Origin: an uncultured Leptolinea sp.
GTDB taxonomy: Bacteria > Chloroflexota > Anaerolineae > Anaerolineales > Anaerolineaceae
Direction: 5' to 3'
Length of the DNA: 64,000 nucleotides
NCBI GenBank assembly: GCA_964648485.1
Contig: CAZYOF010000017.1
Coordinates: 3,744-67,743 of the forward strand
Position 1 is the stretch's first letter, and each line of letters starts with the position of its first letter. The position numbers and the translations under genes were made by a program. Below the pieces are notes generated by a model, which saw only the letters and a program-made list of their open reading frames with translations, ran no database searches and was not told the origin of the DNA. Below, piece by piece: positions 2 to 43,286 of this stretch.

Positions 2-422
2 ATGGGGTTGCCCAATTCGGATGTATTTTTCAATGTAGTTTTTTTTTGTAGTCATGACATCCGTATTAATTCAAGGAACTTCCATTCCTAAGGTGGCAAA
101 ATTACTCAAAGTAGCATCAGAACCAGATGATGTCACAAATTATCCGATTGAACCAGTTTCAGGGCAAGAGTGGCAAGGTCAACTGCAAGAAATAGTCATT
201 AAGCCAGATTCGTGGGTTATCGGTAAAGCAATTTATGAATTAAAACTCCCCCAAGAATACCTGGTGGTACTCATCTCTCGTGGAGGAGATTTTGTAATTC
301 CCAATGGAAGTGTAACAATTGAAGCAGGTGATAAAATACTTGGACTTTCCGTAGGAGTGGTTTACGAAAAAGTAAGAGCTTGTTTTGATAGTGTTTCACC
401 AAAGTATCCAGTCAGAGAATAA
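2..422 (+). CDS. 3' end of a CPA1/NhaP-type cation:proton antiporter gene with a C-terminal TrkA-C (RCK_C) domain. The reading frame is interrupted in a T9 tract (39-47), so it may be a pseudogene or a homopolymer sequencing error.
   Basis: Frame 2 (2-46) reads MGLPNSDVFFNVVFF, which looks like a last TM helix. Frame 3 (48-422) reads VVMTSVLIQGTSIPKVAKLL, then a TrkA-C-like segment (VIGKAIYELKLP...VLISRGGDFVIPNGSVTIEAGDKIL). These two parts are contiguous in this protein family. Confidence 0.5.
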
Positions 423-426
423 AAAG

Positions 427-454
427 AAACAGGCTACCATTTGGTAGCCTGTTT
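427..454. terminator. Bidirectional intrinsic terminator hairpin between convergent genes
   Basis: Perfect 12-bp stem aaacaggctacc / ggtagcctgttt with loop attt, flanked by A-run and T-run sequence. It lies between the antiporter stop (422) and the peroxiredoxin stop (487). Confidence 0.7.
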
Positions 455-486: not shown

Positions 487-1089
487 TTAAAATGCATCAT
501 CTGGTTTCCAGATTTTCCATACCTTACCAGCGAGGTCTGGACCAGGTGTGAGGGTTGGTTTGCCAGGCTGCCATCCAGAAGGAGTCACTTCTCCAGTCTT
601 TACTACATGCTGGAAAGCTTTTACCTGCCGGATTAGTTCTGATACATTACGACCTACTTCGGGGGTTATTACTTCCATTGCTCGTATTACAAAGTCAGGG
701 TCAATAATGAATCTACCGCGGATATCAACCCCTGCTTCTTCATCATAAACACCATAAACGGTTCCAACTCGCCCGCCAGCATCAGATAGAAGTGGGAACG
801 GGACACCACCCGGGACCATTTTGGATAATTCTTCTTCTTGCCATATCTTGTGTGAGAATCTGCTGTCTGTGCTCATCGCAAAGACTTCAACCCCCATATC
901 TTGTAATTCTTTATATTTGACGGCAACTGCCGACAATTCGGTAGGTCAGACAAAGGTGAAATCGCCTGGATAGAAGCAAATGACAATCCATTTTCCTTTA
1001 TAATCTGACAACTTAATATTCTTGAAGCCATTTCCTACCAGAGCAGATAGTTCAAAATCTGGCGCTGGTTTACCTACTTTAGCAAGCAT
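487..1089 (-). CDS. Peroxiredoxin (AhpC/Prx1 family) with an in-frame TGA (946-948) at the peroxidatic cysteine position; candidate selenocysteine-containing Prx
   Basis: Track ORFs 946..1230 and 487..936 are in the same frame. Joined, they read ...FYPGDFTFV-[TGA][14 protein letters not shown]..., the canonical Prx active-site motif DFTFVCPTE. A strong SD (AAAGGAGG, 7-nt spacer) precedes the ATG at 1089. The length from that start, about 200 aa, is typical of Prx. Confidence 0.8.
915..938 (-). promoter_or_regulatory. SECIS-like recoding hairpin just 3' of the in-frame UGA
   Basis: On the mRNA strand: UGA CCUACCGAA UUG-U-CGGC AGUU GCCG-U-CAA. This gives 7 bp with one U/U mismatch and an AGUU loop containing GU. 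The loop starts 18 nt after the UGA. Confidence 0.45.
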
Positions 1090-1257
1090 CTTGGGGGCCT
1101 CCTTTAACGGTAAATTAGTTTGTTCTGCGGCGACCGTTTCAATGGCAATCGGTCCTTTGGATGGTTTTACGCAACCTTCACCTTTTTCCACCATAAGTTC
1201 TCCTTTCTTAACGGGTGCTTGTATTGCCATTATTATGTATATATTAGTATAGCAATT

Positions 1258-1716
1258 TTATTTATATTTTCTATCTGTATACCATCCGGTATTTTTCGGA
1301 GCAAAACTATCAAATTCAGGAATATAAGGTTTGATGTCAACTAAGGGGGTGCCATCAAGCATATCAGCCCCAATAAAATCCAGTTGACCACTTTGAACCG
1401 ATACTAATTCGACAATAGATATTCCCAAATGGTTAGGGCGGTTTGGATATCTGGTTGAAAAAATGCCATGATAGTTGTCATCCAGAAAAGGCTTAACTTT
1501 CAGTTGAAAACCTTCTCCATAATTATGGAATGTATATAACAAGATAATGTAGGAAAAACCATCTAAGTCAAGAAGCCCTTCTTGGTATTCTTCCTTAATA
1601 ATTACTGAACCGGGTATCTTAGACCTGGCCGATTGTATAGGCATAATATCAATATCAGTATTGGAAAAGGGAGTATGGATGGTTCCAATAGGTTCTAACT
1701 CATATCGTTGAAACAT
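1258..1716 (-). CDS. TsaA/TrmO-like tRNA methyltransferase (YaeB/UPF0066 family), short form
   Basis: Family-typical segments LEPIGTIHTPF, RPNHLGISIVELV, DMLDGTPLVDIKPY. Confidence 0.75.
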   Translation of the reverse strand: MFQRYELEPIGTIHTPFSNTDIDIMPIQSARSKIPGSVIIKEEYQEGLLDLDGFSYIILLYTFHNYGEGFQLKVKPFLDDNYHGIFSTRYPNRPNHLGISIVELVSVQSGQLDFIGADMLDGTPLVDIKPYIPEFDSFAPKNTGWYTDRKYK

Positions 1717-7715: not shown

Positions 7716-8033
7716 GATAATCTCCTGCGCTTGTATAATGCGCGGATGTCATTCTAAACTAATGAGAGCGTTACGTCAAACTACCTTCACTTATTCGAGT
7801 GGAAAGAGTACCCGATTTTCGTGTATAATATTTTTACTCATTTGTTAGTAAGGTTCTATACAAAATTCGAGTAGATGATTGATCAAACGTCTGCATATCA
7901 GGCGTTTAGATCTTATAGCAAGCAATTTTTAGCAGCACAAAATATAAATAAATATACATGGTCTAACTACTCATAAACTAGAGATTATTTGGGTCTTATA
8001 AGTGAGTAAACGGCTCCCTTGAAAGGAGGAATT

Positions 8034-9665
8034 ATGGAATCAAAAACGATGATTGCGGCAGCAATGGGAGATTGTGTCCATGTAGCCGGCATTAACCGGT
8101 TCATGAATCTGGCTGAACAAACCGGGTGGAAGGTAATCTACCTCGGACCGGCAGTCCCCGTAAAAGAAATATCCAGGTCAGCCCGGCAACACAATGCTGA
8201 CCTTGTCGCTGTCTCATACAGATTAACACCAGAAAATGGAGAGAAACTTTTTGGTGAACTTGCAGAAGAAATGGATGACCTCTTTAGGGCAGGTGTACGG
8301 TTCGCTTTTGGTGGAACACCGCCCCTGGCTGAAAAAGCCGAAAAATTCCCATTATTCGAAAAAGTATTTAGCGGAGGAGAAAAGCCAGAAATTACGTTAA
8401 GCTACTTGAGAGGCGAAGTTCAGGGCGCCGGTAAGAATCTAATTCCGCCGCAGAAAGCCATCGATCGAATTTTATGGAAACAACCATATCCAATTATTCG
8501 CCATCATTTCGGCTTACCAACTATGGAATTATCACTGGAAGGAATCCACCAGATTGCAGAAAGTGGAGTATTGGATGTGATCTCACTTGGCATTGACCAG
8601 GATGCGCAGGAGAACTTTTTCCATCCTGAACGTCAGAATCCGTCATCACGCGGCGCAGGCGGAGTACCGGTTCGCAGCAGAGAAGATTACGAAAATCTCT
8701 ACCAGGCATCCCGAAAAGGGAATTATCCGCTGATGCGAACTTATTCAGGAACGGATGATTTTATCCGCCTGGCTGAGATGTATATCGAAACAATTAACAA
8801 TGCCTGGTGTGCCATTCCTCTTTTCTGGTTCAATCAGATGGATGGCAGAGGACCATGGGATTTAGAGGGATCGATTATCGAACATCAAAATGTGATGAAT
8901 TGGTATGGTGAACGGGATATTCCAGTAGAACTGAATGAACCCCACCATTGGGGTATGCGTGATGCACCGGATGTAGTATTTGCTGTTAGTGCTTACCTGG
9001 CGGCGTATAATGCCAAACACTTTGGAGTAAAAAATTACATTGCACAATTAATGTTTAACAGTCCACCTGATCAGTCTGATGCAAATGACCTGGCGAAAAT
9101 GGCTGCAATCTTGGATTTAATCCACCCACTGGAAGACAGTAACTTTAAAATTTGGAAACAGACCCGTACCGGATTACTAAGTTATCCGGTAGATGAAGCC
9201 GAAGCGATGGGTCATCTGGCTTCTTCAGTTTATTTGCAGATGGCATTAAAGCCGCATATTGTTCATGTGGTCGGACACAGTGAAGCGCATCATGCTGCCA
9301 CCGGAGCAGATGTAATTACCGCAGCTAAAATCGCTTCAAGAGCGATTGATAATGCAATACAAGGTGCACCAGATCTTCTCGCAGACCCAAAGGTTCAGGC
9401 GAGAAAAAATGAAATCATCAGAGAAGCAAAGATTACATTGAAGGCGATAACCAACCTGGCAAAAGCATCACAAGGCGATCCGTTTACAAACCCCAAAGTA
9501 CTTACAAAAGCTGTGGAAGTGGGTATCATGGATGCACCACAATTACGCAATAATCCTTTTGCTCGGGGGAAAATCCATACCCGAATTCTACAAGGTGCCT
9601 GTGTAGCAGTAGGCGATGATAATAAACCCATCGATGAGACAACCCGCCTGAAAGAATGGCTTTAA
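8034..9665 (+). CDS. Fusion of a B12-binding-like (MutS/GlmS-type) domain with a glutamate (methylaspartate) mutase epsilon-like TIM-barrel domain
   Basis: The N-terminus MIAAAMGDCVHVAGINRF...VAVSYRL...FAFGG resembles the small mutase subunit. The C-terminal part aligns by eye with GlmE (GVKNYIAQ.., PHIVHVVGHSEAHHAATGADVITAAKIASRAI, AVEVGIMDAPQLRNNPFARGK). SD AAGGAGG lies 5 nt before the ATG at 8034. Confidence 0.55.
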   Translation: MESKTMIAAAMGDCVHVAGINRFMNLAEQTGWKVIYLGPAVPVKEISRSARQHNADLVAVSYRLTPENGEKLFGELAEEMDDLFRAGVRFAFGGTPPLAEKAEKFPLFEKVFSGGEKPEITLSYLRGEVQGAGKNLIPPQKAIDRILWKQPYPIIRHHFGLPTMELSLEGIHQIAESGVLDVISLGIDQDAQENFFHPERQNPSSRGAGGVPVRSREDYENLYQASRKGNYPLMRTYSGTDDFIRLAEMYIETINNAWCAIPLFWFNQMDGRGPWDLEGSIIEHQNVMNWYGERDIPVELNEPHHWGMRDAPDVVFAVSAYLAAYNAKHFGVKNYIAQLMFNSPPDQSDANDLAKMAAILDLIHPLEDSNFKIWKQTRTGLLSYPVDEAEAMGHLASSVYLQMALKPHIVHVVGHSEAHHAATGADVITAAKIASRAIDNAIQGAPDLLADPKVQARKNEIIREAKITLKAITNLAKASQGDPFTNPKVLTKAVEVGIMDAPQLRNNPFARGKIHTRILQGACVAVGDDNKPIDETTRLKEWL

Positions 9666-9680
9666 GAATGGAGATTCGAT

Positions 9681-10793
9681 ATGAGTGACAAAATTAAAAT
9701 GTGTGTAATTGGAGCCGGACACGGCGGTAAAGCAATGGCTGCTCACATGGCATTGATGGGATTTCCCACAAATCTTTACAACAGATCTGAAGACCACATT
9801 TATGCAATCAAAGAATTAGGCGGAATAGATCTCGAAAGTTATGAGAATGGACCTCGTGGATTTGCACGTTTAAATCGCGTAACCAATAATATGGAAGAAG
9901 CACTCGAAGGAGTGAACCTGATTATGGTAGTGGTTCCATCCTCTGCCCATGCAGATGTTGCTAAAGTCTGTGCCCCATTCCTTAAAGATGGGCAGGTTAT
10001 TGTTCTTCATCCCGGAAGGACTTGCGGGGCGATTGAAGTCGCTAAAGTTCTCAAGGATAACAACTGTGAAGCAGATGTTACGGTGGCAGAGGCTGAGACT
10101 TTTATCTATGCCTCCCGGTCTGATGGACCTGCACAGGCGCGTATTTTCAGGATTAAAGAAGCAGTTCCCCTGGCTGCACTGCCTGCAACAAGAACTCGCA
10201 TGGTTCTGGATATGATACATGAAGCATATCCACAATACATTGATGGCGTAAATGTATTGCAGACGGGATTAAATAATATGGGCGCAATATTTCATCCCTC
10301 CCTGACCCTCTTAAATGCAGGAAGGATCGAATCTACACATGGAGATTTTGAATTTTATATTGATGGGGTCACTCCCTCGGTTGCACGTGTATTGGAGGTC
10401 CTTGACCGCGAAAGAGTTACTGTCGCAGCCTCCCTGGGTATCAGGGGTAGAACTGCTTTGGACTGGTTAAAACTTGCCTACAATACCATCGGAGAAGATC
10501 TTCATGAGGCAGTTCATAATCAACCAGGTTACTATGGGATTAAAGCGCCTGCAACCTTGAATCACCGCTATATCTTTGAAGATGTCCCCATGAGTTTGGT
10601 GCCAATCGCTGCTCTGGGTGAACGCTACGGTGTTTCTGTGCGTGGCATGGATTCAATCATCCGTTTAGCTTGTATCATTCACCGGACAGATTACTGGAGG
10701 AAAGGAAGAACCCTCGATAAATTGGGCATCAATAACCTGAGTGTCGGCGAGCTGACTTACTATGTCAATGAAGGTAAACTGACAGAGAATTAA
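9681..10793 (+). CDS. NAD(P)-dependent opine (octopine/nopaline) dehydrogenase family protein
   Basis: N-terminal Rossmann motif VIGAGHGGKAMAAHMAL. Family-like segments ETFIYASR and LNNMGAIFHP. 370 aa. Confidence 0.7.
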   Translation: MSDKIKMCVIGAGHGGKAMAAHMALMGFPTNLYNRSEDHIYAIKELGGIDLESYENGPRGFARLNRVTNNMEEALEGVNLIMVVVPSSAHADVAKVCAPFLKDGQVIVLHPGRTCGAIEVAKVLKDNNCEADVTVAEAETFIYASRSDGPAQARIFRIKEAVPLAALPATRTRMVLDMIHEAYPQYIDGVNVLQTGLNNMGAIFHPSLTLLNAGRIESTHGDFEFYIDGVTPSVARVLEVLDRERVTVAASLGIRGRTALDWLKLAYNTIGEDLHEAVHNQPGYYGIKAPATLNHRYIFEDVPMSLVPIAALGERYGVSVRGMDSIIRLACIIHRTDYWRKGRTLDKLGINNLSVGELTYYVNEGKLTEN

Positions 10794-15283: not shown

Positions 15284-15694
15284 TTATTTTTCCTGGATGA
15301 TTTCAAATGAAGTAGTGATATCTGCTACACCACGAATTGTGGATGCTACGGAGCAGTATTTGGTTTCTGACAGTTCAATTGCCTGCATGAGAGCTTTTTC
15401 TGTCAAACCGATACCCGAAACCTCATAATGTATATGAATTTTTCGGAAAGTCCAGGGTGGATCTGCATCTTGCTCTCCACTCGTTTTTATTATCAGGCTT
15501 TGAATTTTTATTTTCTTCTTTTCTAATATCTCAACCACATCAACAGCTGTACACGATGAAAGCGCTACCAACAAAAGCTCTGAAGGCTTCATACCTACAC
15601 CTTCGGCTGTGGTCGAAAGCACAACGGAATGGTTTGATGAGTCTGTTCCGATAAACTGTTTGCCGGTAACCCAGCGGACTGTCGAGGATGCCAT
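15284..15694 (-). CDS. OsmC/Ohr family (thiol peroxidase-like) protein
   Basis: 136 aa with OsmC-type conserved Cys contexts (LVALSSCTAVDV and ETKYCSVAST). Confidence 0.8.
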   Translation of the reverse strand: MASSTVRWVTGKQFIGTDSSNHSVVLSTTAEGVGMKPSELLLVALSSCTAVDVVEILEKKKIKIQSLIIKTSGEQDADPPWTFRKIHIHYEVSGIGLTEKALMQAIELSETKYCSVASTIRGVADITTSFEIIQEK

Positions 15695-16306: not shown

Positions 16307-17161
16307 CTACTTTACTGCAATTTCATGACGGTGATCAATAATCCATTCACTCCAGGAGCCCGGGTAAAGGAAAGGTCGGTCTAATCCACAATATATCATT
16401 CCCAGTACATGAACAACAGAGGTGACACCAGATCCACAATAAACAACCGTTTTCTTACTGGATTGTTGATCAGACAAGAATGTGGAGTATAAATTAATAA
16501 GGTGTTCTTTAGATAAAAAATGCCCATCCGGGGTATAGCACTTTGTATAAGGCAAATTTGAAGCCCCGGGGATATGACCACCAGAAACATCAATTATTTC
16601 ATCAAGCCCGTGAAAGCGGTTTTCCGTTCTTGCATCAAGAACAAGCCAATCATCTGCTTTTATAATTTGTTCCATTTGCGGCAGATCCAACATCCAGTTT
16701 GTGTTAAATTTATAATGTGCAACCGAGGAACTTCTGGCGAGAGGGGTATGGTTATAAATTTCATTCCCTTCATTGATCCAGGCTCCTATACCTCCATCAA
16801 GAACTGCTGCTTTTTCATGACCATAAGCCCGTAATAGCCACCATAATCTTCCGGCTGCCATTGCCCCGCCATCTGCATCATATGCAACTACCTGTGTGGT
16901 TGGGTGTATACCCCATGCCTGCAAATTATTAATAAATACATTTTCGTCAGGGAGGGGGTGCCGTCCGCTATGAAGATGGAGTAATCCAGATAAATCCCGG
17001 TTAAGATCCGCGTAGTAGGCTCCAGGGATATGTGCCTCATTGTAATATTCATAACCTACTGCTGGATCAGACAATACAAAGCGGCAATCAATAATCAAAA
17101 AATCAGGGTTATTGATATTTTCTGCCAATGCTGAAGTGGAAATCAAGGTGTCAAATTTCAT
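16307..17161 (-). CDS. Tandem-rhodanese sulfurtransferase (thiosulfate/3-mercaptopyruvate type)
   Basis: Two rhodanese domains with active-site loop VYCGSGVTS. 284 aa. Confidence 0.85.
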   Translation of the reverse strand: MKFDTLISTSALAENINNPDFLIIDCRFVLSDPAVGYEYYNEAHIPGAYYADLNRDLSGLLHLHSGRHPLPDENVFINNLQAWGIHPTTQVVAYDADGGAMAAGRLWWLLRAYGHEKAAVLDGGIGAWINEGNEIYNHTPLARSSSVAHYKFNTNWMLDLPQMEQIIKADDWLVLDARTENRFHGLDEIIDVSGGHIPGASNLPYTKCYTPDGHFLSKEHLINLYSTFLSDQQSSKKTVVYCGSGVTSVVHVLGMIYCGLDRPFLYPGSWSEWIIDHRHEIAVK

Positions 17162-22955: not shown

Positions 22956-24782
22956 TTATTTCTTCTTCTTTGGTTCAGTTACCCAATTGGATATGGATGC
23001 ATTGGTTGTTGTTGAGGGTTCAGCCGCGCCATTCAGGAAATTATTGGCAAAGGTCGTTCCTGCAAATGTGCTGCCTGCCCAGGGGATTGCTCCCGTCCAG
23101 GCAGTGGGACCACCTGCCCAGGTGCCATAACCGCCACTCCATAAGCCGTAGCTGCCGGACCACAACCCGTAAGATCCGCTCCACAACCCGTACGAACCCG
23201 ACCATAACCCGAAACTGCCGCTCCACAGCCCGTACGAACCAGACCACAGCCCGAAGCTGCCGCTCCACAGCCCGTAAGAACCGGACCATAAACCGTATGA
23301 TCCACTCCACAAGCCGTATGAACCGGATGCCGCTTCATCTTCGTAGAGCTTGAAGAGCCCGTCACTTTCATCGAAATAGGAGTAGCCCTGATAATGCTCA
23401 GCACCATCCAGGTCGGCGTGGATATCCATGCCGTAATTGGCAGAACCGCTGATATCGGCAAAGACCGCATCTGGTGCGTTAACTCTTCCTGCCCCCTGTT
23501 GCCAGACGCTGTAAAGTGCCTCACCTGAGTCGGGGTTTGTCCAGGGGAAGGAGGTGTACATGACGCGATATTTCACCTCATCCGGTGAGAGTCCGCCATT
23601 GTTTGCCAGCATGAGAGCTGCAATGCCTGAGACAACTCCGGCTGCCTGTGATGTCCCCGCCATGGAGAAATACTGATTGGCTACCCGATTGGCATCATGT
23701 GATTTGGCGATGTATGAATTTGGCAGCATGGTTGAGACCATGTGCGCGCCGGGCGCCATCACATCCGGTTTGACGAAACCATCTAATGTAGGACCTGCGG
23801 AAGAGAATGGGGCGATATAGTCATCGGACCAGTCATCTACGGTGTAATTATCAGTGAAAGCGCCAGCGGTGATGACGTACGGGTTATTCCCGGGAACACC
23901 TACCGTCATGGGGTCAGAGCCGGTGTTGCCGGCTGCCACCACCACGGTGATGCCCTCTGCCCAGGCGCGCATGATGGCTTTATTCAGCGGATCCGCCCAA
24001 TAAGGCGATTGCACCGCCGCAACCAGTGACATGTTCATCACTTTTATGTTGTACTCATCCTTGTGTTCAATTACCCAATCGATGGCTTTAATGACTGTTT
24101 TATATGTGCCTTTCCCCTTTTTATCCAGCACACGGATACCTACCAGATCGACACCGGGAGCCATGCCGTTCCATTCACCATCTGCACCGGTCTGACTGTT
24201 GGCAATAATACCGGCGATGTGCGTACCATGCCCGTTGGGGTCAAAGGGTTTCTTGTTTTTCTTATCCACCAGGTCCAGCCAGGCTACGATGCGGGTCTTG
24301 CGATCTTCATCAAGCCCTTTCAGCAAGCCGATATGTCTGCCGATGCCGGTATCCAGGATGGCGACGGTGACACCTTCACCGGTCACACCCTGCTCCCAAA
24401 CGAGATCTGCCCCGGTGACATCGGGGTAATCAGTCGATGGTGAGTCTTTTCCGAAACCGCCTTCTTCATCCCATTCGTCGTCTCCCTGCAGCATGACCTC
24501 GCTATCAGGGAATACATCGACATCTGGCAGGCAGGCAAGCAGGTCTGCCTCCGCCCTGGTAAGACGCGCTTCCACGCCGGTGATGCTGCTGAACGGTTCC
24601 ACAACCGTCCCTCCGACCCGCTGCACCGCACTGGTGACCGCGTCCATGCTAAACCCTGTTACGATGTAACTGCTTCCATGCGAGACTGCACTTGCGGTGG
24701 GGGTGGCCAGGGACAGCGCGATAACCAGCAGCAAGGCGATACTGACTGCCTTATTAAGATAATTTCTGATTCTGCTGTTCAT
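22956..24782 (-). CDS. Secreted S8 (subtilisin-family) serine peptidase with a C-terminal heptad-repeat tail
   Basis: Signal peptide. Catalytic triad contexts AILDTGI, HGTHIAG and GTSQAAG. The C-terminus carries 9 tandem SGS(Y/F)GLW heptads. Confidence 0.9.
   Translation of the reverse strand: MNSRIRNYLNKAVSIALLLVIALSLATPTASAVSHGSSYIVTGFSMDAVTSAVQRVGGTVVEPFSSITGVEARLTRAEADLLACLPDVDVFPDSEVMLQGDDEWDEEGGFGKDSPSTDYPDVTGADLVWEQGVTGEGVTVAILDTGIGRHIGLLKGLDEDRKTRIVAWLDLVDKKNKKPFDPNGHGTHIAGIIANSQTGADGEWNGMAPGVDLVGIRVLDKKGKGTYKTVIKAIDWVIEHKDEYNIKVMNMSLVAAVQSPYWADPLNKAIMRAWAEGITVVVAAGNTGSDPMTVGVPGNNPYVITAGAFTDNYTVDDWSDDYIAPFSSAGPTLDGFVKPDVMAPGAHMVSTMLPNSYIAKSHDANRVANQYFSMAGTSQAAGVVSGIAALMLANNGGLSPDEVKYRVMYTSFPWTNPDSGEALYSVWQQGAGRVNAPDAVFADISGSANYGMDIHADLDGAEHYQGYSYFDESDGLFKLYEDEAASGSYGLWSGSYGLWSGSYGLWSGSFGLWSGSYGLWSGSFGLWSGSYGLWSGSYGLWSGSYGLWSGGYGTWAGGPTAWTGAIPWAGSTFAGTTFANNFLNGAAEPSTTTNASISNWVTEPKKKK
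23076..23327 (-). repeat. In-frame 21-nt tandem repeat array encoding (SGS[YF]GLW)x9 plus 3 degenerate units
   Basis: Period-21 repeats are visible in the DNA. The units differ at synonymous positions, for example ccataagccgtagctgccgga, ccacaacccgtaagatccgct and ccacaacccgtacgaacccga. Confidence 0.9.
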
Positions 24783-24893
24783 GGCATTTCTCCCGAAAAT
24801 AACTGCTTATGGATGAATTGACCCTCCATATCTTTCTGCGAGGGCAATTTCAATATAGCATGCGGGAGACAGTTTGAACCTTACAGCTACTTT

Positions 24894-25820
24894 TCAATTA
24901 GGATTCGGTTTGTTAGACAATTCCTTCTCGATCATATCCACAGTTACACGGGTTCCGGTACCCCCATACCCGCGCACCGAATAAGACGCAATAATATTCC
25001 CCCAGGCAAGGCACTCCGCCACTGATTTTCCATCGAGATATGCCTTCAGAAAGCCGGCATCATAACAATCACCCGCGCCGGTGGTATCGAGTGGTTTGAC
25101 CGGTGTGACCGGCACATGGGTGATCTCGCCTTTCACGCAGGCGTAACTGCCATCTGGACCGTTCTTGACCACCACCAGCGGACACAGCTCCCCCAGCACG
25201 CGGATGGCATCTGCCAGATCCGCCTTCTGTGTGAGGGAACAGGCTTCCTGCGCGTTAGGTAGAAAGATATCGGTCTGCTTCAATGCCCGTTGCAATGGCT
25301 TTTCAGTGATGCGTGACTCAGGGCTACAGTTGCCATCCATCATTAAGATCATCTTCTTCATCTTAATTACCGGCACTGCCATATCAAACATCTTGCCGTA
25401 CAACATGCCGGGGATAAATACCGCCCGTGCGTTCACCTTTGCCAGGGCAGCCACCCCCGCGGGGATGGTCGGCTCGGGGTCGTAGTAGGTCATGAACCCA
25501 CGGTCCGGACCGACAGATGCAGCCGATGAGATACGCCGGTAAGGGCGGTTGTGATGTACGAAAAAGCGCTCATCCATGCCCTCGGCGCGGACAAAATCGA
25601 GGATGATCTTGCTGATAAGGTCGTTGCCCCAATCCGCCGCCCATGCGACCTTCATGCCCAGCCGATGCATCGCCGCCGCCGCGGTGTAAGCCTCTCCGGG
25701 CAGCATGTCGAAACCCTCAGCCAGCGTATCTTCGTGCAGAATGGGCAGACGCGGCAGGTTGGCGTAGATCACATCCAGACTGGCATCGCCCACCACGAGC
25801 ACATCGTACTTTTCTGCCAT
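24894..25820 (-). CDS. PfkB-family carbohydrate kinase
   Basis: MAEKYDVLVVGDASLDV N-terminus and the DTTGAGD motif near the C-terminus. The ATG at 25820 lies 1 nt after the upstream gene's stop. Confidence 0.8.
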   Translation of the reverse strand: MAEKYDVLVVGDASLDVIYANLPRLPILHEDTLAEGFDMLPGEAYTAAAAMHRLGMKVAWAADWGNDLISKIILDFVRAEGMDERFFVHHNRPYRRISSAASVGPDRGFMTYYDPEPTIPAGVAALAKVNARAVFIPGMLYGKMFDMAVPVIKMKKMILMMDGNCSPESRITEKPLQRALKQTDIFLPNAQEACSLTQKADLADAIRVLGELCPLVVVKNGPDGSYACVKGEITHVPVTPVKPLDTTGAGDCYDAGFLKAYLDGKSVAECLAWGNIIASYSVRGYGGTGTRVTVDMIEKELSNKPNPN

Positions 25821-25821
25821 A

Positions 25822-27177
25822 TCAGCGCAACCTCGGGAAGTAATCACCATGCCGGGCGAGGTAGGCATCTACCAGCGCCTGTGCGCCGAGGTAATCTGCC
25901 ACCAGCGGATGGATGGTGAGGGCGTGGATGGCTTTCGCACGGCTGCCTTCCACCGCCGCTTCGATGGTCTTCTGCTCGTAGGCTTTGACGGTTTGCATGA
26001 GCCCCAGGCAGTGGATGGGAATCTCGCCCACCGGAATGCCTTCCACTTTATCACGGCTGACCCGCGCGGCGATCTCGACCACTTCGTCATCCTGCATCCC
26101 CTGCACGCAACCCCGGTTGGGGATGTTCACGATAAGCGTGCGCTGTTCACCTCCCACCAGCGCCTCGATCAGGTTGAGCGCCAGGCGCGCGTATCCCAGC
26201 TCGGCATCGCGGACGGTCGTCTCATCCACCTTGACCTGCGTTTCATCCCCACCCCAGTGCGCCCTGCCGCGCTCGATGAGGTAGCGGTTGTACACGCGCT
26301 GCAAGCCTTCGGCATCTTCCTTCTGGCGCGCCTCGCGCACCATGGCAAAGAAGGCGTGGTTCATGCGCGCCACTTCTTCTCCACGCAGCTCGGCAGCGGA
26401 TTTCATGTGCGCGTACTCTTCACGCGACTGGTAGTAATACTTGAGATAGTAATTGGGCAGCAACCCCAACGCTGCAGCCACCTGCGGGCGGACCTCGTAG
26501 CCGGGAATATCTTCTTCTTGCGCAAGGAAAGCAAGGATCTGCCCGATCAGCTCCTGATCGCCCACCTTCACCGAACGGATCCAGCCCAGGTGGTTCAAGC
26601 CAAAATACTCCGCCTGGATCTGGCTCTCATACAGCAGCAGCGAATCGGCAATGGCGGAGATCATGTCCGAGGGACCATCGCAGATGCCCACCGCGCGTTG
26701 CCATCCACCCACACTGGCAACCGCCTCTGCCAGCATCCCACTGGGATTGGCGAAGTTGATGAGCCACGCGTTGGGACAGAGCGTTTTCATCTGCTCCACG
26801 TATGCCAGCAGAACGGGGATAGAGCGCAAACCCATGGCAAAGCCACCCGCGCCGGTGGTCTCTTGCCCGATGTAGCCCAGATCGACCGCCACGCGCTCAT
26901 CGATCACGCGCGAGTCGATGCCGCCCACACGGAAGATGGTGATCACGTAATCCGCGCCGCGCAGGGCATCTTCTGCCTTCGTGGTGCGGTGGATGCGGAA
27001 TTTGACCGCCGGGTCGCTTTCGAGCAGCATGGTGATGGCGCCGATCAGCTCCAGCCGCTCGGCATCCACATCCATCAGCCAGAGTTCTGTAATCCCCAGC
27101 GCGTTTTGCCGGGTGATGATTTCCTGCACAATCAGCGGCGTTCGTACCCCCGCCGCACCTAAAATGGTCAGTTTCAT
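25822..27177 (-). CDS. Glycoside hydrolase family 4 (6-phospho-glucosidase-like, NAD/Mn-dependent)
   Basis: The MKLTILGAAGVRTP Rossmann start, overall length and ..NFANPSG.. motif are typical of GH4. Confidence 0.8.
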   Translation of the reverse strand: MKLTILGAAGVRTPLIVQEIITRQNALGITELWLMDVDAERLELIGAITMLLESDPAVKFRIHRTTKAEDALRGADYVITIFRVGGIDSRVIDERVAVDLGYIGQETTGAGGFAMGLRSIPVLLAYVEQMKTLCPNAWLINFANPSGMLAEAVASVGGWQRAVGICDGPSDMISAIADSLLLYESQIQAEYFGLNHLGWIRSVKVGDQELIGQILAFLAQEEDIPGYEVRPQVAAALGLLPNYYLKYYYQSREEYAHMKSAAELRGEEVARMNHAFFAMVREARQKEDAEGLQRVYNRYLIERGRAHWGGDETQVKVDETTVRDAELGYARLALNLIEALVGGEQRTLIVNIPNRGCVQGMQDDEVVEIAARVSRDKVEGIPVGEIPIHCLGLMQTVKAYEQKTIEAAVEGSRAKAIHALTIHPLVADYLGAQALVDAYLARHGDYFPRLR

Positions 27178-27313
27178 ATGCCACCTGTAATATTGGGTTG
27201 AGCAAATTATACCTGATGCCCGCCCGCGCCCGGAACTGTTCGATAGTTCTCCTGTATAATTTTAATGCAACGGCAGCGCGGATTCCACGTATATTTGTGT
27301 GAGGATAAAGAAG

Positions 27314-27730
27314 ATGGGCAAAAAACATAAGGATGAGAAGAAATTGAAACAACCCTGGCGCAATTTGCACGGCGCCATCTGGCTGATCGGATTAGGCTAC
27401 CTGTTCATCAGCGGCAACTGGTTCCCCGGTATTCTGTGGCTGATCGGGGTGAGCATGATCCTCGAAGCCGTGCTGATGATGGCGGTACCCGATGCCTACG
27501 AAGAAGAGGAACCAAAGGAAACCAAACCCGAACCGACCCCCGGACCGGCGGTGTTGGAGACCGATTTCAGCATTCCGGCGCCCGCTCCCAGAGCGGAGCC
27601 GCGCCCCTACGCTTCTCTGCCCACCAACTGCCCGCGCTGCGGCGCCCCTGCCCGTGGACACGAGGTGATCTGGCACGGCAGCCATTCTGCCGATTGCGCC
27701 TTCTGCGGTGCGAGTTTGCCCATCAAATAA
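27314..27730 (+). CDS. Small membrane protein with a Pro/Glu-rich linker and a C-terminal Cys4 zinc-ribbon
   Basis: Two TM helices, then CPRCGAP...CAFCGAS. GAGGA lies 8 nt before the ATG at 27314. Confidence 0.5.
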   Translation: MGKKHKDEKKLKQPWRNLHGAIWLIGLGYLFISGNWFPGILWLIGVSMILEAVLMMAVPDAYEEEEPKETKPEPTPGPAVLETDFSIPAPAPRAEPRPYASLPTNCPRCGAPARGHEVIWHGSHSADCAFCGASLPIK

Positions 27731-27798
27731 TCAAATTCCTCTCTCCCCAATCTTCGATTGGGGAGAGTATGTTTGTTCCCTACTTTGCTAATTAAACT

Positions 27799-28023
27799 GT
27801 CATTCTGCCTTGCCCTGGCGGGCTAGGCCAGGGAGCGCAGCGAAGAATCTCTACCAATGTTTAACTTAATGATTCATCACATCATGCCAGACCACAATAC
27901 GAAGTAGAGATGCTTCACGTTGTTCAGCATGACAAACTGGGGTTAATAAATATATCCTGTTTTTTTACTGTCAACCTACCTCAGTCTATCATTCTGCCTT
28001 GCCCTATTGGGTATAAGCCAGGC
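27799..28023. repeat. Cluster of REP/MITE-like intergenic repeats
   Basis: A 17-nt identical core tcattctgccttgccct occurs at 27800-27816 and 27989-28005. An imperfect 30-nt inverted repeat pairs 27799-27854 (with a 26-nt insertion) against 27904-27933. An internal 7-bp hairpin is ccctggc/gccaggg. Confidence 0.65.
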
Positions 28024-28031
28024 TTAAATTT

Positions 28032-28784
28032 CTATCTATACTCCGCATCCCAGGGGGTGCGGCTGGTAATGATGAGGAGATAATCTGTCTCATCAATATC
28101 CACCATAAGTTCGTACGGGGTGTGTTTACCCACCAACTTCACAAATCCATCGTCTGTCAACACCGTGACTGAGAAAGCATCTCTATCTTCAGTAGAAAAT
28201 TTCACCGTCCCCGGACCTCCGCGCAAAAATACAATATCACTCCCCATCCCCGTATAAGAAAAACCCAGGGTTAGAATATGCGAATCCAAAACATGACCCA
28301 GTGGGATAATATCCATAGTCCATAACCCATCGGTATCTACATCAACGTATTGATAAATTTGATCCAGCATAAATAATGGGACGTACGCATCATACAACCC
28401 GATGTCATCCATGATCACACCGAGCTGATTATTGTCTTCATCCAGTGCGGTGATTGTAAAGTACGTGGCACCCGCGGTGGCGATCCTCGCCACGGGCAGA
28501 TACTCAAAGCAATTCAGGTCCAATTCAAAAGTTGAGCCGCCATCTCCGGCGAAGACCAGGTATTCTTCTACATACTGCGGATCGCAAGAGCCCTCCGGTG
28601 TAGGTTGCATGGTAGGTAAAACCGTAGGCGTAACCACGGGCAGATGTGTGGACGTGGGCACCCAGGGCAGATTCACCTCGGGCGGGGATGACACGGTTTG
28701 TACCAAACGCGTAAGGTTTTCTGCCGAAAAGCAAGACAGGCATAAAAAGCTGACAAACATGGATAGCGCCAATAATCTTTTCAT
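28032..28784 (-). CDS. Secreted protein or lipoprotein of unknown function
   Basis: N-terminal signal peptide MKRLLALSMFVSFLCLSCFS. No recognisable catalytic motif. Confidence 0.5.
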   Translation of the reverse strand: MKRLLALSMFVSFLCLSCFSAENLTRLVQTVSSPPEVNLPWVPTSTHLPVVTPTVLPTMQPTPEGSCDPQYVEEYLVFAGDGGSTFELDLNCFEYLPVARIATAGATYFTITALDEDNNQLGVIMDDIGLYDAYVPLFMLDQIYQYVDVDTDGLWTMDIIPLGHVLDSHILTLGFSYTGMGSDIVFLRGGPGTVKFSTEDRDAFSVTVLTDDGFVKLVGKHTPYELMVDIDETDYLLIITSRTPWDAEYR

Positions 28785-28858
28785 CGTTCCCCTCTACATC
28801 CTATTATAGGCAGTTCACCAAATTTATTCACTGTTTTGCAAGCCCAATTTGCATGGAA

Positions 28859-29353
28859 TCAACCTTTCACCCCCCTGCGTTTCTCCTCCTGCATCATTAG
28901 CGCCATATTCTTATAAAACAGCAGCCCCACGATCATATCATTCCAATTACGAAAGAGATGATTGAGCGGCATGAGGAAAGGCTTGCCGTAGTCTCGCTGC
29001 TGGTAGAGCTTGCCCGATGCCCACAGCTTCCACAGATCCACACCCGTGCGGTCGCGCAGATCGGTGAAAAGGGCATCGAGGATGGCTTCCCACACGCCCG
29101 CTTTCACCCAGCCGGTGTAGCGCCTGAAACAGGTGGTGTAGGGTGGATAGCCCTCGGGCAGCTCCATCCACTGGATGTCACGCAGGATGACATAGAGGAT
29201 GCCCTCGAGCACATCGCGGTCGTTGGCGGGTTTGCGCCCCACCGTGCCCTCTGCCCGCGGGGGGATGACCCCCTGCACGAGCTGCCAGCGCCGGTCGTTG
29301 AGGAAGGTGGTTTTACGCTGCATGGTATTTAGTAATGAAATGAAATTTTGCAA
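28859..29353 (-). mobile_element. IS5/IS4-family transposase N-terminal (DUF4096-like) domain gene with no DDE domain following; probable IS remnant
   Basis: LNDRRWQLVQGVIPP...GRKPANDRDVLEGILYVILRDIQWMELP..YPPYTTCFRRYTGWVKAGVWEAIL matches the typical IS5-group OrfA N-terminal pattern. It sits exactly at the high-GC to low-GC transition. Confidence 0.55.
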
Positions 29354-29641: not shown

Positions 29642-30715
29642 ATGCCGATTGAAATTGGAATTTGGCGTATTGAAGATAAGTTAGCCAAAGTCGAATACAT
29701 ACCAATTGAAAATGAAAAAAAACTCGAACAGATCATAATAAAAAATATCCAGATTATCGATAAAGATCTGTTAGTTATTGGTAACCAAATCACCACCGCG
29801 TATGGAAATAAACTAGATATTCTAGCAATTAATAAGAATGCTGAGTTAGTACTAATAGAATTAAAGCGAAATAAGACACCTCGCGATGTTGTAGCCCAAT
29901 TACTTGATTATGCGACCTGGGTTGAGCACCTAAGTTATGATGACGTTAATGCGTTCTATGAAGAAAATCACCCAACAAAAAAACTAGAGCAAGCATTTAA
30001 TGAACATTTTGAGCTTGATATCCCAGATGAATTCAATGAAACCCATAAGTTAATTATTGTCTCTTCAGAATTAGATAACAGTACAGAAAGAATAATTCAT
30101 TATCTATCAGACAATGGTATAGCGATTAATGCAATATTCTTTAAATTTTTCAAAGAAAATGATAAAGAGTACATCACAAGAAGTTGGTTAATCGACCCAT
30201 TCACAACTGATGAAAATGTAAAGAAAACAACAAAAAGATCAAAAAACCTATTTTGGAATGGCAGAGATTGGTATGTGTCTCTTGGTGTAGATGAAAGCCG
30301 CAACTGGGATGATTGTAAAAAATATGGGTTTATATCGGCTGGAGGTGGTAAATGGTACAGTAATACTTTGGCTTTATTACCACTTGAAGCAAGGGTATTT
30401 GTTTGCATACCGAAAGTTGGATATGTAGGTGTCGGTATTGTAAAAAAACAAGCTGTGCCAGTAAAAGAATTCCTTGTTGAGATTGATGAGAAGGAGAGGC
30501 CAATTCTTGAAGCAGAATTAAAAGCAACAAAAATGGGCGAATTTGCAGATGATTTGGAAAAATCTGAGTATTTGGTTGGTGTTGAATGGCTAAAGACTGT
30601 ACCGATAACCAAAGCTATTTGGGAAAAAGGTATGTTTGCCAACCAGAATTCTGCATGTAAACTGCGGAATAGCTTCACGATTGAGCGTTTAACCAAGATC
30701 TTCGAATTAGAATAA
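29642..30715 (+). CDS. NucS-like PD-(D/E)xK nuclease domain fused to an unassigned C-terminal domain (candidate modification-dependent or type IV-like restriction protein)
   Basis: N-terminal [38 protein letters not shown] matches the D..ExK..Q..Y core of NucS-like nucleases. The C-terminal 150 aa ([23 protein letters not shown]...[16 protein letters not shown]) is unassigned. TATAAT lies at 29611-29616 and AGGAGGG 5 nt before the ATG. The line 29701-29760 counts at about 25% G+C. Confidence 0.6.
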
Positions 30716-30735: not shown

Positions 30736-32262
30736 ATGACAGATAATTCAAACGAACTTGAAAAAACACTATGGGCAGCCGCAGATAAAATGCGCTCGAA
30801 TATGGACGCAGCTGAATATAAACACGTCGTATTAGGATTGATTTTTCTCAAATACATTTCTGATGCATTCAACGATTTGTACCAAAAGCTCGCAGAGAAC
30901 AAAGGCGAATATGAGGGCTCTGATCCTGAAGACCCAGATGAGTACCTGGCTAACAATGTCTTTTTCGTACCTGAAAAAGCGCGCTGGCAATACCTGCAGG
31001 ACCGCGCCAAACAGCCAGAAATCGGCAAATATCTTGATGACGCCATGGATGCCATCGAACGGATTAACCCGCCGCTCAAGGGTGTGCTTCCCAAAATTTA
31101 TGCAGACCCAGAGTTAAACAAGCCGCGGTTGGGGGAATTAATTGATTTAATTGGCACAATCGGTTTTCGCCAGGATGCGCACGCGTCCCAGGACCTGCTG
31201 GGGCGTGTCTATGAATATTTCTTAGGCCAATTTGCCGACGCCGAAGGGAAAAAAGGCGGACAATTTTACACCCCTGCCAGTATTGTTAAACTACTTGTCG
31301 AGATGATTGAACCTTTTAACGGCCGTGTCTATGACGGCTGCTGCGGCAGCGGCGGTATGTTTGTTCAGAGTGAAAAGTTTGTCCGTAACCACCAGGGGAA
31401 CATCAAAGACCTGTCGATCTTTGGACAAGAGTCCAACCCCACCACCCTGCGGCTGGCGCGCATGAACCTGGCTATTCGCGGGATCGACGCCAAACTGGAA
31501 CTAGGCGATACCTTCCTCAATGACCGCCATCCAGACCTCAAAGCGGATTTCATTCTAGCTAACCCGCCTTTCAATGTGAGTGATTGGAGCGGCGAGCAGC
31601 TGCGCGATGACATTCGTTGGAAGTACGGACTGCCGCCAGTCGGTAACGCCAATTATGCCTGGCTGCAGCATTTTATCCATAAACTCAGCCCCACGGGTAC
31701 CGCCGGAATTGTGCTCGCAAACGGAAGTATGAACAGCAACACTGGCGGTGAAGGCGAGATTCGCAAGAATATGATCGAAGCTAACATAGTGGACTGCATG
31801 GTTGCCCTGCCTGCCCAGCTTTTTTATAATACGATGATCCCTGCCTGTCTATGGTTCCTGGCTAGAGACAGGACGAATCATAAATTTCGCAACCGTTCCA
31901 ACGAGCTATTATTCATTGATGCCCGCAAACTGGGATCGATGATTAATCGCCGCAACAAAGAGTTTGCACCCGAAGATATCTCCAAAATCGCTGGCACCTA
32001 CCACGCCTGGCGCGGCGAGGGCGGTGTGTATGAAGACCAGCCCGGTTTTTGCAAAGCGGCAACCATGGATGAAGTTCGCGCTAACAATTACGTACTGATG
32101 CCCGGGCGATATGTGGGCACGGAAGAAGCCGAAGATGACGGCATCCCGTTTGAAGACAAAATGAATGCGCTGACGGCTCAACTGGCTGAACAGTTCGCCC
32201 GTGGAAATGAACTACAGCAACGGATTCGCGAGAATTTGAAAGGGATCGGTTATGAATTCTGA
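30736..32262 (+). CDS. hsdM: Type I restriction-modification system, DNA methyltransferase subunit (N6-adenine)
   Basis: HsdM N-terminal domain ([32 protein letters not shown]), AdoMet motif [10 protein letters not shown] and catalytic NPPF. Confidence 0.95.
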
Positions 32263-33376
32263 AGTAAAACTTCTTCCGCCAGCCAGGTTGGAAGAAACCA
32301 AACCCATCTTAAAAAAACTGGCATCCGCACACCGTTACCTGGCAGAGTTAAAGGGTGTAGCTGCATCGATCCCCAACCAAACCATCCTGATTAACACGCT
32401 CGCGCTGCAGGAAGCCAAAGACAGTTCTGCGATTGAGAATATCATTACTACACATGATGCTCTGTATAAGGAGCAGTTATTCAGCGATGTGATTAGCGAC
32501 GCCGCTGCAAAGGAAGTCAGCCTTTACGCGGAAGCGCTCAAACATGGTTTTGATCTGGCTACGAAAAATCACATGCTCACACTAAACCATGTTGTCGAAA
32601 TCCAGAAACGGCTGGAACAGAATGACGCCGGCATACGCAAAATTCCAGGCACGGTACTGGTCAACCCGGCTAGTGGATCGGTTATTTATACACCTCCTCA
32701 GGAGTATCAGACCATTCTGAGATTAATGGATAATCTGATGGCGTATATCAATAACCAAGAAATGCATGATGTGGACCCCTTAATCAAAATGGCGGTTATT
32801 CACTACCAGTTTGAAACCATCCATCCCTTTTATGACGGCAATGGACGCACCGGCAGGATCATTAATTTGCTTTACTTGGTCATGGAAGGGTTATTAACCT
32901 TACCAGTTTTATACCTCAGCCGCTACATCATTCGCAACAAAGGCGAATATTACCGTCAGCTGCAAAGCGTGCGGGACACTGACGAATGGGAACCCTGGAT
33001 ATTGTACATGCTAGAAGCAGTGGAACAAACCTCACAGCAAACCATTCTGCTGGTGAACGGCATTAAAGACCTGATGATGGATTACAAACACCGTATCCGC
33101 AGTGGGTATCCCCGGCTTTACAGCCAGGATCTGATCAACAACTTATTCAGGCATCCTTACACCAAGATCGAATTCTTAATGCGAGATTTGAACATCAGCC
33201 GGCTGACAGCTGCCAAATACCTGGACACGCTGGCAGCGGATGGTTTTCTGGTCAAAGAGAAAATTTGGCGCAGCAATTACTATGTCAACCTCCCGTTATT
33301 TAACCTGCTAAAAGGAGATAACGGGCCGGTCGATACAGAACCGGTTGTCCTCACCCGCCGTATGGATCAGGTATAA
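32252..33376 (+). CDS. Fic/DOC-family protein (Fic_N, Fic and a C-terminal wHTH-like domain) embedded in the R-M operon
   Basis: Canonical Fic motif [12 protein letters not shown]. The N-terminal inhibitory-helix motif SSAIEN fits [ST]xxxE[GN]. The start overlaps the hsdM stop by 11 nt. Confidence 0.9.
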
Positions 33377-33530
33377 AAACAGATGAAAAGTAAACACGAT
33401 CAATTTGTCATGCATAAAATAGCAAAAAATTTATACATGAAACAAATGTCATGCATAAATCCAGTAATGACCTTTAAGTTAGAAGATAATCAAGAGAAGT
33501 CCATTCACCAGAAATTTGGGGGTATGAGTT

Positions 33531-34778: not shown

Positions 34779-35824
34779 GCGGATTTAAATATGAGGATGA
34801 CAATTGTAGGCGATTTAATGACTCCCTCGATGAAGAAGGTCTGGTATACATCGCGGGGATTGAATTTCAAAGAAGCCGCATCCTCTATGAATTGGCAACC
34901 ACTACATATATTGATGCGTATAACGAGTTTCAAGAACAGGAATTTCAAGAGTTAAAGCAGACTGTTTTTGATTCATATCCAGCCTGTGTCGCCTATAATT
35001 TTCGGCTATCTGAAAGGGGGGAAGGCGCAAACGATCCTGTACGAAAGCTCTTGCATTTGAAGGATTCCTGGGAAGCAATCGTTTTCGTTTTATATGCTTT
35101 GGTTATGGGGGAAGTGAGATTTAGAAATATTGACATGAAGACATCACAAATATTCGTTTCACTAGGAACTGGAGGAAACCCTGTTTACGCCAATTTCAAT
35201 ACAGACAGGATCCTTTCAGATGCTATCAAACAAAAAGTTCAAAACATTAAAGCCATAATTCTCCATTGTAAAAACAATCATCTGGGATTCAAATGCGAAG
35301 AAATCGATGAGACTTTGCTAGATGACCTGTTGGATTTGCAGGATATTCGCAACGATATTTCACACCATACAGCTCCAACGCGTGAACAGGCAGAGGCTGA
35401 ACTTGCTTTAGTGATCCCATTGTTTCAAAAAATGTTGACGAAAACAAAGTTTTTGGAACGCTGCAATATTCTTCGATTTGATAGTTACTCATCATCTTGT
35501 CGATGTGAATCCTTCAATGGACATTCCCTCAACCGGGAGTATGATAACTACCCATTCCATGATCCGCAAAAAACAATGGTGTTAGGCCTTGGACAGGAAC
35601 AATTGTTTGTAAACTGGGATGGGGAATGCTTTAGCCTGTCTCCTTTCCTTCATTTTGACCGCGATAATTCTGGACATGAGTCTTATTTATGCTTTTATAA
35701 AGGAAAGAAAAACAGCAAATATTGGTTTGAGCCAGTAAAAATTCGAACTGAGAAATCATTTGATTCCATTCAATCTCGTTTTGAAATAGAAAAAGACGAT
35801 CTTGTCAGACTTTTGGTGCCATGA
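34775..35824 (+). CDS. Uncharacterised 349-aa protein translationally coupled between hsdS and hsdR; candidate HEPN-like (Rx4H) effector
   Basis: ATGA overlaps at both ends (34775-34778 and 35821-35824). The motif [14 protein letters not shown] gives R-N-x3-H in a predicted helical region. No Walker A motif and no match to a family I can name. The line 35101-35160 counts at 35% G+C, against 60% in the hsdR line 36721-36780. Confidence 0.6.
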
Positions 35825-38800: not shown

Positions 38801-39003
38801 TCACCGAAAGCGTTAGGAATAATACTTCAATCGACTGGCAATATAAGCAGAGTGTGCAGGCAAAATTGCGGGTATTAGTGAAGCGTATATTACGGAAATA
38901 CAAATATCCACCGGATGATCCGGCGACTGGCGAATATACAATATCTGTAAATAAAGTATTGGATCAGGCAACTCAATTAGCAGGTTTTTGGGCTGGTCAA
39001 TAA
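35821..39003 (+). CDS. hsdR: Type I restriction-modification system, restriction/translocase subunit
   Basis: N-terminal PD-(D/E)xK nuclease ([19 protein letters not shown]). SF2 helicase motifs ([17 protein letters not shown]). 1060 aa. Confidence 0.95.
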
Positions 39004-42678: not shown

Positions 42679-42681
42679 ACT

Positions 42682-43284: not shown

Positions 43285-43286
43285 GG

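Follow-up and report, generated by a model that had tools for sequence, protein, structure and literature searches.

Two open reading frames on the minus strand of the window, by which we mean the whole 64-kb stretch of DNA analysed here, are separated by a single TGA codon. The question raised by this locus is whether that TGA is a genuine stop, as the standard code would have it in splitting the gene, prxU, into ORFs of 94 aa and 149 aa, or whether it encodes selenocysteine (Sec) within one continuous protein. Judging from sequence comparisons, the locus is very probably one intact gene for a functional Sec-containing peroxiredoxin (Prx) of the PrxU family, with the Prx1/AhpC fold. The Sec-containing peroxiredoxins (TxxU) were founded as a family on the Eubacterium acidaminophilum protein (Sohling 2001), and PMC13188914 lists the family as experimentally verified. 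A 2006 bacterial survey (PMC1794560) counted 12 members, and the Sargasso Sea data (PMC1088965) yielded 43.

One reading frame interrupted by a single TGA

The ORFs at 946..1230 (-) and 487..936 (-) form a single frame, the sole interruption of which is the TGA at 948-946. The following features were placed on this frame:

487..1194, minus strand: prxU, long form, from ATG 1194-1192 to TAA 489-487; 235 codons, with the candidate Sec at residue 83 (Sec83)
946..948, minus strand: UGA codon, candidate Sec, at the peroxidatic position of PxxxTxxU; TGA conserved in relatives
976..978, minus strand: codon of Cys73 (ICFYPGD), 10 residues before Sec
583..585, minus strand: Thr204 (in GEVTPSGW), where typical 2-Cys Prx have their C-terminal resolving Cys, by alignment to GEVCPANW of tryparedoxin peroxidase and to Prx2

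The peroxidatic context FTFV-TGA-PTEL aligns with FYPLDFTFVCPTEI in both human Prx2 and the tryparedoxin peroxidase of T. cruzi, and the active-site residues P76, T80, U83, and R159 are all present, in columns that are invariant or nearly so in the family alignments. Homologues match query residues 1-235, which supports the extent of the long form. Cys73 was found in all 81 Sec-clade loci and in the four Cys forms examined, with its conservation falling below 90% in a wider alignment of 99 sequences. The region of the resolving Cys is conserved across the family as EVTP[SA]GW.

An earlier note on this DNA had joined the two ORFs into one frame split only by the TGA at 946-948, had placed that codon at the peroxidatic Cys, and had read GEVTPSGW where the resolving Cys usually lies. 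All three readings agree with the translation across the junction and with the alignments to Prx2 and tryparedoxin peroxidase, which put Thr204 at the last of these positions. The gene bounds given there, 487-1089, are those of a short form described below, but the family-wide ORF reaches 1194, and ATG 1089 is one of two conserved starts.

Protein family and fold

The joined protein, with the UGA read as Cys, scored 386.3 bits against the NCBIfam equivalog model NF040737 (peroxi_PrxU, cutoff 270). Positions 2-232 of the 233 in this profile were covered only when the N-terminal part of the protein was included; the short form from ATG 1089 reached 372.2 bits, the N-terminal part adding 14 bits. 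The AhpC model TIGR03137 gave 184 bits, below its cutoff of 272, and all Prx6-type NCBIfam models stayed below their cutoffs. In Pfam, AhpC-TSA matched at 130 bits, together with the C-terminal domain 1-cysPrx_C (PF10417). The best solved relatives were human Prx2, human Prx4, and tryparedoxin peroxidase (E ~1e-49), with ~45-50% identity to Prx2 and Prx4. An AlphaFold2 model of a natural Cys orthologue (P0021) had a pLDDT of 89.7, and its comparison with Prx4, Prx2, and AhpC gave target-normalised TM scores of 0.90-0.94 over the ~190-residue Prx domain.

The predicted protein thus has the fold of the typical 2-Cys peroxiredoxins (human Prx2 and Prx4, Salmonella AhpC) and is 40-50% identical to them; like them, it has the Pro, Thr, and Arg of the active site and the C-terminal domain. 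It differs from them in having a candidate Sec in place of Cys, Thr204 in place of the resolving Cys, and an N-terminal Cys arm without counterpart in the solved structures. Its likeness to PrxU of E. (Peptoclostridium) acidaminophilum and to NF040737 lies in the Sec of PxxxTxxU and in the missing C-terminal resolving Cys, whereas the window gene comes from another phylum, its best homologues pointing to Anaerolineae as the probable source, and carries a 35-aa N-terminal Cys arm. Sec-containing peroxiredoxin is already an established selenoprotein family, for which NCBI keeps a dedicated model, and the window gene is a new, well-behaved member of it; the call is correct and would not surprise a specialist.

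Conservation of the TGA and selection downstream of it

To see which codon relatives carry at the Sec site, we surveyed species-representative genomes and took the best 80 related loci, with 67-84% identity. They came from Anaerolineae, Dehalococcoidia, Syntrophaceae and other Deltaproteobacteria, Ignavibacteria, Actinomycetota, Acidobacteriota, Zixibacteria, Nitrospiraceae, Armatimonadota, Planctomycetia, and others. The codon is TGA in 79 of these 80 loci and TGC in one (L078), a comparison of TGA with TGC/TGT that the earlier note had proposed as a check on its reading. One locus (L026) holds two TGA-bearing copies, and more distant orthologues have Cys at the site. The frame stays open for 148-159 codons beyond the TGA in every surveyed locus.

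Selection on the part downstream of the TGA was evident from the distribution of substitutions. Between the window and locus L004, differences at codon positions 1, 2, and 3 numbered 15, 6, and 92, at 91% amino-acid identity, and the third-position excess was repeated in 12 other comparisons. An identical C-terminal protein with the same TGA was found in three independent Logan assemblies (SRR13447936/7, ERR1121785). In the strain variant among these three (L003), the 148 downstream codons differ at 12 nucleotides, 11 of which are third positions; no amino acid changes, and the TGA is kept.

These observations bear on three alternatives. A nonsense mutation from TGC or TGT to TGA, inactivating an ordinary Cys peroxiredoxin in this strain, would agree with the two-ORF reading of the standard code and with the fact that no Sec machinery is seen in the window. 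It is extremely improbable, however, when the same codon is TGA in 79 of 80 species across phyla, the downstream frame is under strong purifying selection (third-position changes dominate, at 78-93% amino-acid identity), the strain variant changes no amino acid, and the SECIS hairpin is conserved and covarying. An error of sequencing or assembly at one base of a Cys codon might be suspected, given that the source is a MAG contig and that MAGs carry errors; with the identical TGA recovered from different runs, in three Logan assemblies that are independent of one another, and seen in 79 further genomes, the chance of this is negligible.

The third alternative is that the UGA is decoded in some other way, either through reassignment of TGA (code 4 or 25) or through a near-cognate or suppressor tRNA that inserts Trp or Cys. 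The database proteins closest to the window protein are of two kinds: C-terminal fragments of 149 aa, with 85-93% identity, and full-length sequences that show 'W' in the active site. The many copies with Trp would fit such decoding, as would a Sec machinery that is presumed for this genome. Nevertheless, the 'W' is a gene-caller artefact on short contigs; in the DNA of one such entry, we found a TGA that had been translated with the wrong code. TGA is also the stop of 12 of the 46 long ORFs in the window, from which we conclude that the code has not been reassigned genome-wide. Trp would be unable to act as the peroxidatic residue, and plain read-through would have no need of a conserved hairpin of SelB type whose GU apex is invariant. 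We therefore regard decoding as Trp or Cys as very unlikely. Taken together, the conservation of the TGA, the selection downstream of it, the independent assemblies, and the ordinary use of TGA as a stop effectively refute a nonsense mutation, a sequencing error, and a reassigned code.

For annotation, this means that prxU should be entered as a single selenoprotein gene, with a translation exception recorded for 948-946, and neither split into two ORFs nor labelled a pseudogene. The remark in the earlier note that genes of this kind are usually mis-annotated holds for the database copies seen here, which are split or mistranslated: many PrxU-family copies in public protein sets have been cut down to 149 aa or show Trp, wrongly, in the active site.

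A conserved and covarying hairpin after the UGA

A hairpin follows the UGA within the coding sequence:

917..936, minus strand: candidate SECIS hairpin; stem of 936-929 with 924-917, U.U mismatch 933/920, apex A928-G927-U926-U925

Its sequence is UUGUCGGC-AGUU-GCCGUCAA, with seven pairs, the U.U mismatch, and a G as the second loop base. The hairpin begins 9 nt after the UGA, and its core stem 11 nt after. It is the minimum-free-energy fold of the 41 nt that follow the UGA (-8.9 kcal/mol). On the single sequence this is marginal (z = -1.99), as 9 of 200 shuffles fold equally well, and the significance of the hairpin comes instead from its retention, through compensatory changes, across 81 distinct homologous sequences. 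These were compared in an ungapped alignment of the 45 nt from the TGA (82 sequences, 81 distinct), in which G22 and U23 are invariant and the apex reads R-G-U-Y. The informative pairs in this alignment are:

Pair 18-27, two synonymous third positions: GC 61, AU 13, GU 4, CG 2, UA 1; none unpaired
Pair 21-24, third positions of Ala and Val: AU 45, GC 35, GU 1; none unpaired
Pair 16-29, not third positions: GC 27, AU 12, UA 4, GU 2, U.U 30, and 6 other mismatches
Pair 15-30, two third positions: GC 62, AU 5, GU 3, CG 1, UA 1; 9 unpaired

At pair 16-29, even the amino-acid changes (Ser/Val, Thr/Val, Ala/Ala) track the pairing. The covariation score of the whole structure was 0.285, compared with 0.147 in shuffles (0 of 500 reached the observed score) and at most 0.127 for slid partners. 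When mutual information was computed for the 91 pairs of third-codon columns, the top three were 21-24 (0.90 bit), 18-27 (0.73), and 15-30 (0.28), with the rest at or below 0.21, and RNAalifold run on the 45-nt alignment returned those three top pairs only. We also considered whether a bias in GC content lies behind the 21-24 correlation and rejected this explanation. GC3 at the other wobble sites was similar in the classes with A and G in column 21 (0.53 and 0.58), so base composition is not the cause, and no other wobble pair exceeded 0.21 bits.

Part of the stem carries no weight of its own. The GC pairs 19-26 and 20-25 (GCNGC...GCNGC) are imposed by Ala codons and therefore prove nothing by themselves; Cys forms keep part of the stem too. 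The recently converted Cys form with TGC (L078) retains the whole hairpin. Among five deeper Cys forms, three (L085, L086, L091) break the R-G-U-Y apex or pair 18-27, as against none of the 80 Sec forms (hypergeometric ~1e-4). No Rfam family matched the hairpin.

In the E. coli fdhF SECIS, the upper hairpin is placed 11 nt from the UGA; its U17 is unpaired, and G23/U24 in its apical loop are essential (PMC8659212). The prxU hairpin resembles it in lying within the coding sequence ~11 nt after the UGA, in an apical G-U that is essential there and invariant here (G22/U23), and in an unpaired U six bases 5' of the G (U17 there, U16 in prxU). It differs in that its register is shifted by one base, and in that the U is part of a U.U mismatch, not a bulge, which is often replaced by a Watson-Crick pair in homologues (GC 27, AU 12, UA 4). 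This uniform SECIS design, with an R-G-U-Y apex ~11 nt after the UGA, is extended by the present loci over at least eight phyla.

The hairpin that the earlier note had described, 9 nt after the UGA and with 7 bp, a U/U mismatch, and an AGUU loop with G second, is present in full at 936-917. Its proposed fit to the bacterial SECIS model gains from the invariant G22/U23 and from covariation at synonymous sites. The hairpin pairing in orthologues, which the note had suggested as a further check, speaks the same way, as not one of the 81 sequences has a mispair at 18-27 or 21-24. The identification of a Sec peroxiredoxin, likewise made there, is strengthened by this covariation together with the NF040737 score above cutoff, the TGA in 79 of 80 loci, and the selection downstream of it.

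An N-terminal arm and two conserved starts

Upstream of the Prx domain, three further features were identified:

1147..1185, minus strand: N-terminal arm motif, with Cys8 at 1173-1171; conserved as C-V-x-P-x-x-G-P-I
1200..1206, minus strand: Shine-Dalgarno sequence AAAGGAG, 5 nt before ATG 1194
1087..1103, minus strand: internal Shine-Dalgarno sequence AGGAGG (1103-1098), an 8-nt spacer, and ATG 1089-1087, start of a short form of 200 aa with Sec48

The arm motif, E-x-K-D-G-C-V-K-P-A-K-G-P-I, was found in 84 of 86 gene copies, and its residues are conserved as follows: Val in 80 of 84, Pro in 76, Gly in all 84, the second Pro in 77, and Ile in 73. All four bases are used at the third codon positions of these residues, and the combination of conserved residues with free third positions points to selection at the protein level. 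A variable linker of ~20-25 residues follows the motif. In the P0021 model, the arm has a pLDDT of 61-67 and the linker falls below 50.

Both starts have their own ribosome-binding sites. Of 81 homologues, 67 have a Shine-Dalgarno-like motif ahead of the corresponding first ATG, which typically stands 7 codons before the Cys. Internally, 69 of 81 homologues carry AGGAGG or GGGAGG at 23-32 nt before the VGK Val codon, 51 of them at exactly 26 nt, and the hexamer is followed by 8 nt and then by ATG (55) or GTG (13). The residues encoded by the internal hexamer vary (KEE, KEV, QEV, KEA, KGG, RRE, and others), as does its codon register, and since the hexamer is kept while both change, its conservation must lie at the nucleotide level. 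With two conserved Shine-Dalgarno/start pairs, at 1194 and 1089, two isoforms are possible, and the data suggest that the gene may yield both a long, arm-bearing product and a short one that lacks the arm.

It could also be that the Sec peroxiredoxin is made solely in its short form, from ATG 1089, the in-frame region upstream being an untranslated leader. The internal AGGAGG-N8-ATG is indeed better conserved (69-79 of 81) than the Shine-Dalgarno sequence of the first ATG (67 of 81). Natural short Cys forms begin at the position of the internal start; one of them (L091) lacks the arm and begins there after a GGAAGGAGA site. The purified E. acidaminophilum PrxU is also ~203 aa long, which corresponds to the short form. 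Nevertheless, 80 of 82 copies keep the upstream region open and in frame, and C-V-x-P-x-x-G-P-I is conserved as amino acids with third positions free, which requires translation. The arm also belongs to the NF040737 profile, where it accounts for the additional 14 bits, and the C. sticklandii protein is annotated at 240 aa with Sec84. We consider exclusive production of the short form unlikely.

The C. sticklandii seleno-peroxiredoxin CLOST_2406, with Sec84 of 240 aa (PMC3091704), has the same long architecture as the window protein, with Sec83 of 235 aa. Clostridia-type homologues (L088-90, Sec84 of 240) share with it the Cys of the N-arm and the two Shine-Dalgarno/start pairs, and they place an AGUU-loop hairpin at an equal distance. 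This type (P0085) differs from the window protein in sequence, at ~60% identity, in having Ala, not Pro, after Sec, and in a fully paired stem with U-A for U.U. If the locus holds anything new, it is the N-terminal Cys arm shared across the family and the conservation of the internal ribosome-binding site. A narrow literature search on PrxU itself returned no description of a tethered Cys arm or of two isoforms.

Proposed mechanism and mechanistic class

In E. coli, the fdhF SECIS recruits SelB carrying Sec-tRNA(Sec). To judge by its conservation, the UGA at 948-946 would likewise be recoded to Sec during translation of a single mRNA, and the hairpin at 936-917 is predicted to display its invariant apex G-U and to recruit SelB with Sec-tRNA(Sec) to the ribosome. 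By homology with Prx1/AhpC, Sec83, together with Pro76, Thr80, and Arg159, would reduce the peroxide and become a selenenic acid. Because Thr204 replaces the C-terminal resolving Cys, recycling might then either be carried out directly by thioredoxin or pass through a selenenylsulfide that involves Cys8, a conserved residue of the flexible arm. The name of the NF040737 family model includes the term thioredoxin-dependent. It is possible, and we offer this tentatively, that a Cys arm tethered by a flexible linker of ~25 residues resolves Sec83, as a selenenylsulfide, in place of the C-terminal Cys and that the dual starts tune the ratio of arm-bearing to arm-less subunits. We infer actual Sec insertion, peroxidase activity, a role for Cys8, and the use of both starts from the genes compared.

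The mechanistic class of the enzyme was also evaluated. The EVCP resolving Cys of typical 2-Cys peroxiredoxins is replaced here by GEVTPSGW, and TIGR03137 stays below its cutoff, yet the fold is still Prx1/AhpC-like. The earlier note had assigned the protein to a 1-Sec type. The C-terminal resolving Cys on which that assignment was based is indeed missing, but the class is not established, because Cys8 lies on a conserved arm (84 of 86 copies) outside the coordinates given in the note, and Cys73, at -10 from Sec, is conserved throughout the Sec clade.

Sec machinery and genomic surroundings

We looked for selA, selB, selD, and tRNA-Sec in the 64-kb window with ARAGORN, Rfam, reading of ORFs of at least 180 aa, and rough SelA/SelB/SelD motifs, and found none, a result that is uninformative on the genome as a whole. 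None of these genes was observed in the 8 kb beyond the left end of the window (L001), the rough SelA/SelB/SelD motif searches over all fetched loci returned nothing, and no tRNA-Sec was linked to prxU in 60 homologous loci. A scan of the window for TGA-split frames gave prxU as the only credible selenoprotein gene. That the organism decodes Sec is something we infer from prxU itself and from its relatives.

There was no universal partner in the gene neighbourhood of prxU across genomes, only recurrent oxidative-stress genes. Fur/PerR-like, rubrerythrin-like, and desulfoferrodoxin-like ORFs, named by eye from sequence, were each found near prxU at 8 loci in other genomes, and a glutaredoxin gene (Pfam match) lies near it in the Clostridia-type loci. 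This neighbourhood fits a role in the peroxide defence of anaerobes, and the gene would indicate that peroxide defence in this Anaerolineae-like organism depends on selenium.

Two candidate transcription signals flank the gene:

421..454, minus strand: strong intrinsic terminator; 12-bp stem (454-427), AAAT loop, CTTTTT; 33 nt past the TAA stop
1246..1273, minus strand: weak sigma-70-like promoter candidate TAGAAA-16-TGnTATACT, between the stop of the trmO-like gene and prxU

The promoter candidate is a consensus match only, and promoter-like sites in this region are no more numerous than in shuffled sequence. Upstream of prxU, on the same strand, are the TrmO-like gene (1258-1716) and an XRE/cupin regulator.

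Variation of prxU in other genomes

Among the 80 best loci homologous to the selenocysteine peroxiredoxin gene prxU, only one copy (L078:10247, from an Acidobacteriota MAG) was found to carry TGC (Cys) in place of the TGA. Because its hairpin is still complete and it closely resembles the TGA copy L060, this copy appears to have switched from Sec to Cys recently and to retain a fossil SECIS. Two prxU paralogues were observed in one Deltaproteobacteria MAG (L026:5910 and L026:11252, 5.3 kb apart), and the TGA and hairpin are present in both. The N-terminal arm, an extension of prxU with a conserved Cys, deviates at two loci. At L012 (~10190), there is an in-frame stop 21 codons 5' of the TGA, which may stem from an indel error in long reads, and at L077 the arm has no Cys and reads DGIQPVTGS.

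Other genes and base composition of the window

Other features noted in the window are as follows:

8019-10793 (+): 548-aa protein, then 370-aa NAD-dependent dehydrogenase-like protein; weak family matches only
15284-15694 (-): OsmC-family protein
16307-17161 (-): two-domain rhodanese/3-mercaptopyruvate sulfurtransferase-like protein
22956-24782 (-): subtilisin-like protease, 608 aa, with a C-terminal repeat run
23200-29200: GC-rich island 1, 52-61% GC, with subtilase, PfkB kinase and a 451-aa ORF
29642-30715: 357-aa ORF, 5' of the putative restriction-modification cluster
30736-39003 (+): putative type I restriction-modification cluster, in the order hsdM, Fic/DOC-like gene, hsdS, 349-aa ORF, hsdR
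32252-33376 (+): Fic/DOC-like gene, between hsdM and hsdS
34775-35824 (+): 349-aa ORF, between hsdS and hsdR
39400-43600: GC-rich island 2, 57-64% GC, with mfd and pth

The OsmC-family and rhodanese-like genes lie 14 kb from prxU, with no TGA involved; the rhodanese-like protein faintly resembles rhodanese-related (seleno)protein models. A weak N-terminal match to a cobalamin-binding domain was seen in the 548-aa protein.

Background GC in the contig is ~40-43%, interrupted by the two GC-rich islands, which may have originated by horizontal transfer or reflect a chimeric MAG contig. Long antisense ORFs there are probably GC artefacts, and the 451-aa ORF was taken, judged by eye, for a family-4 glycosidase. 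The genes of the putative type I restriction-modification cluster, along with the preceding 357-aa ORF, were identified from translations only. In the 608-aa protease, the C-terminal repeats read (S/F)GLWSGSYGLWSG, and the corresponding repeat DNA (23129-23327) is tandem, with a period of 21/42/84.
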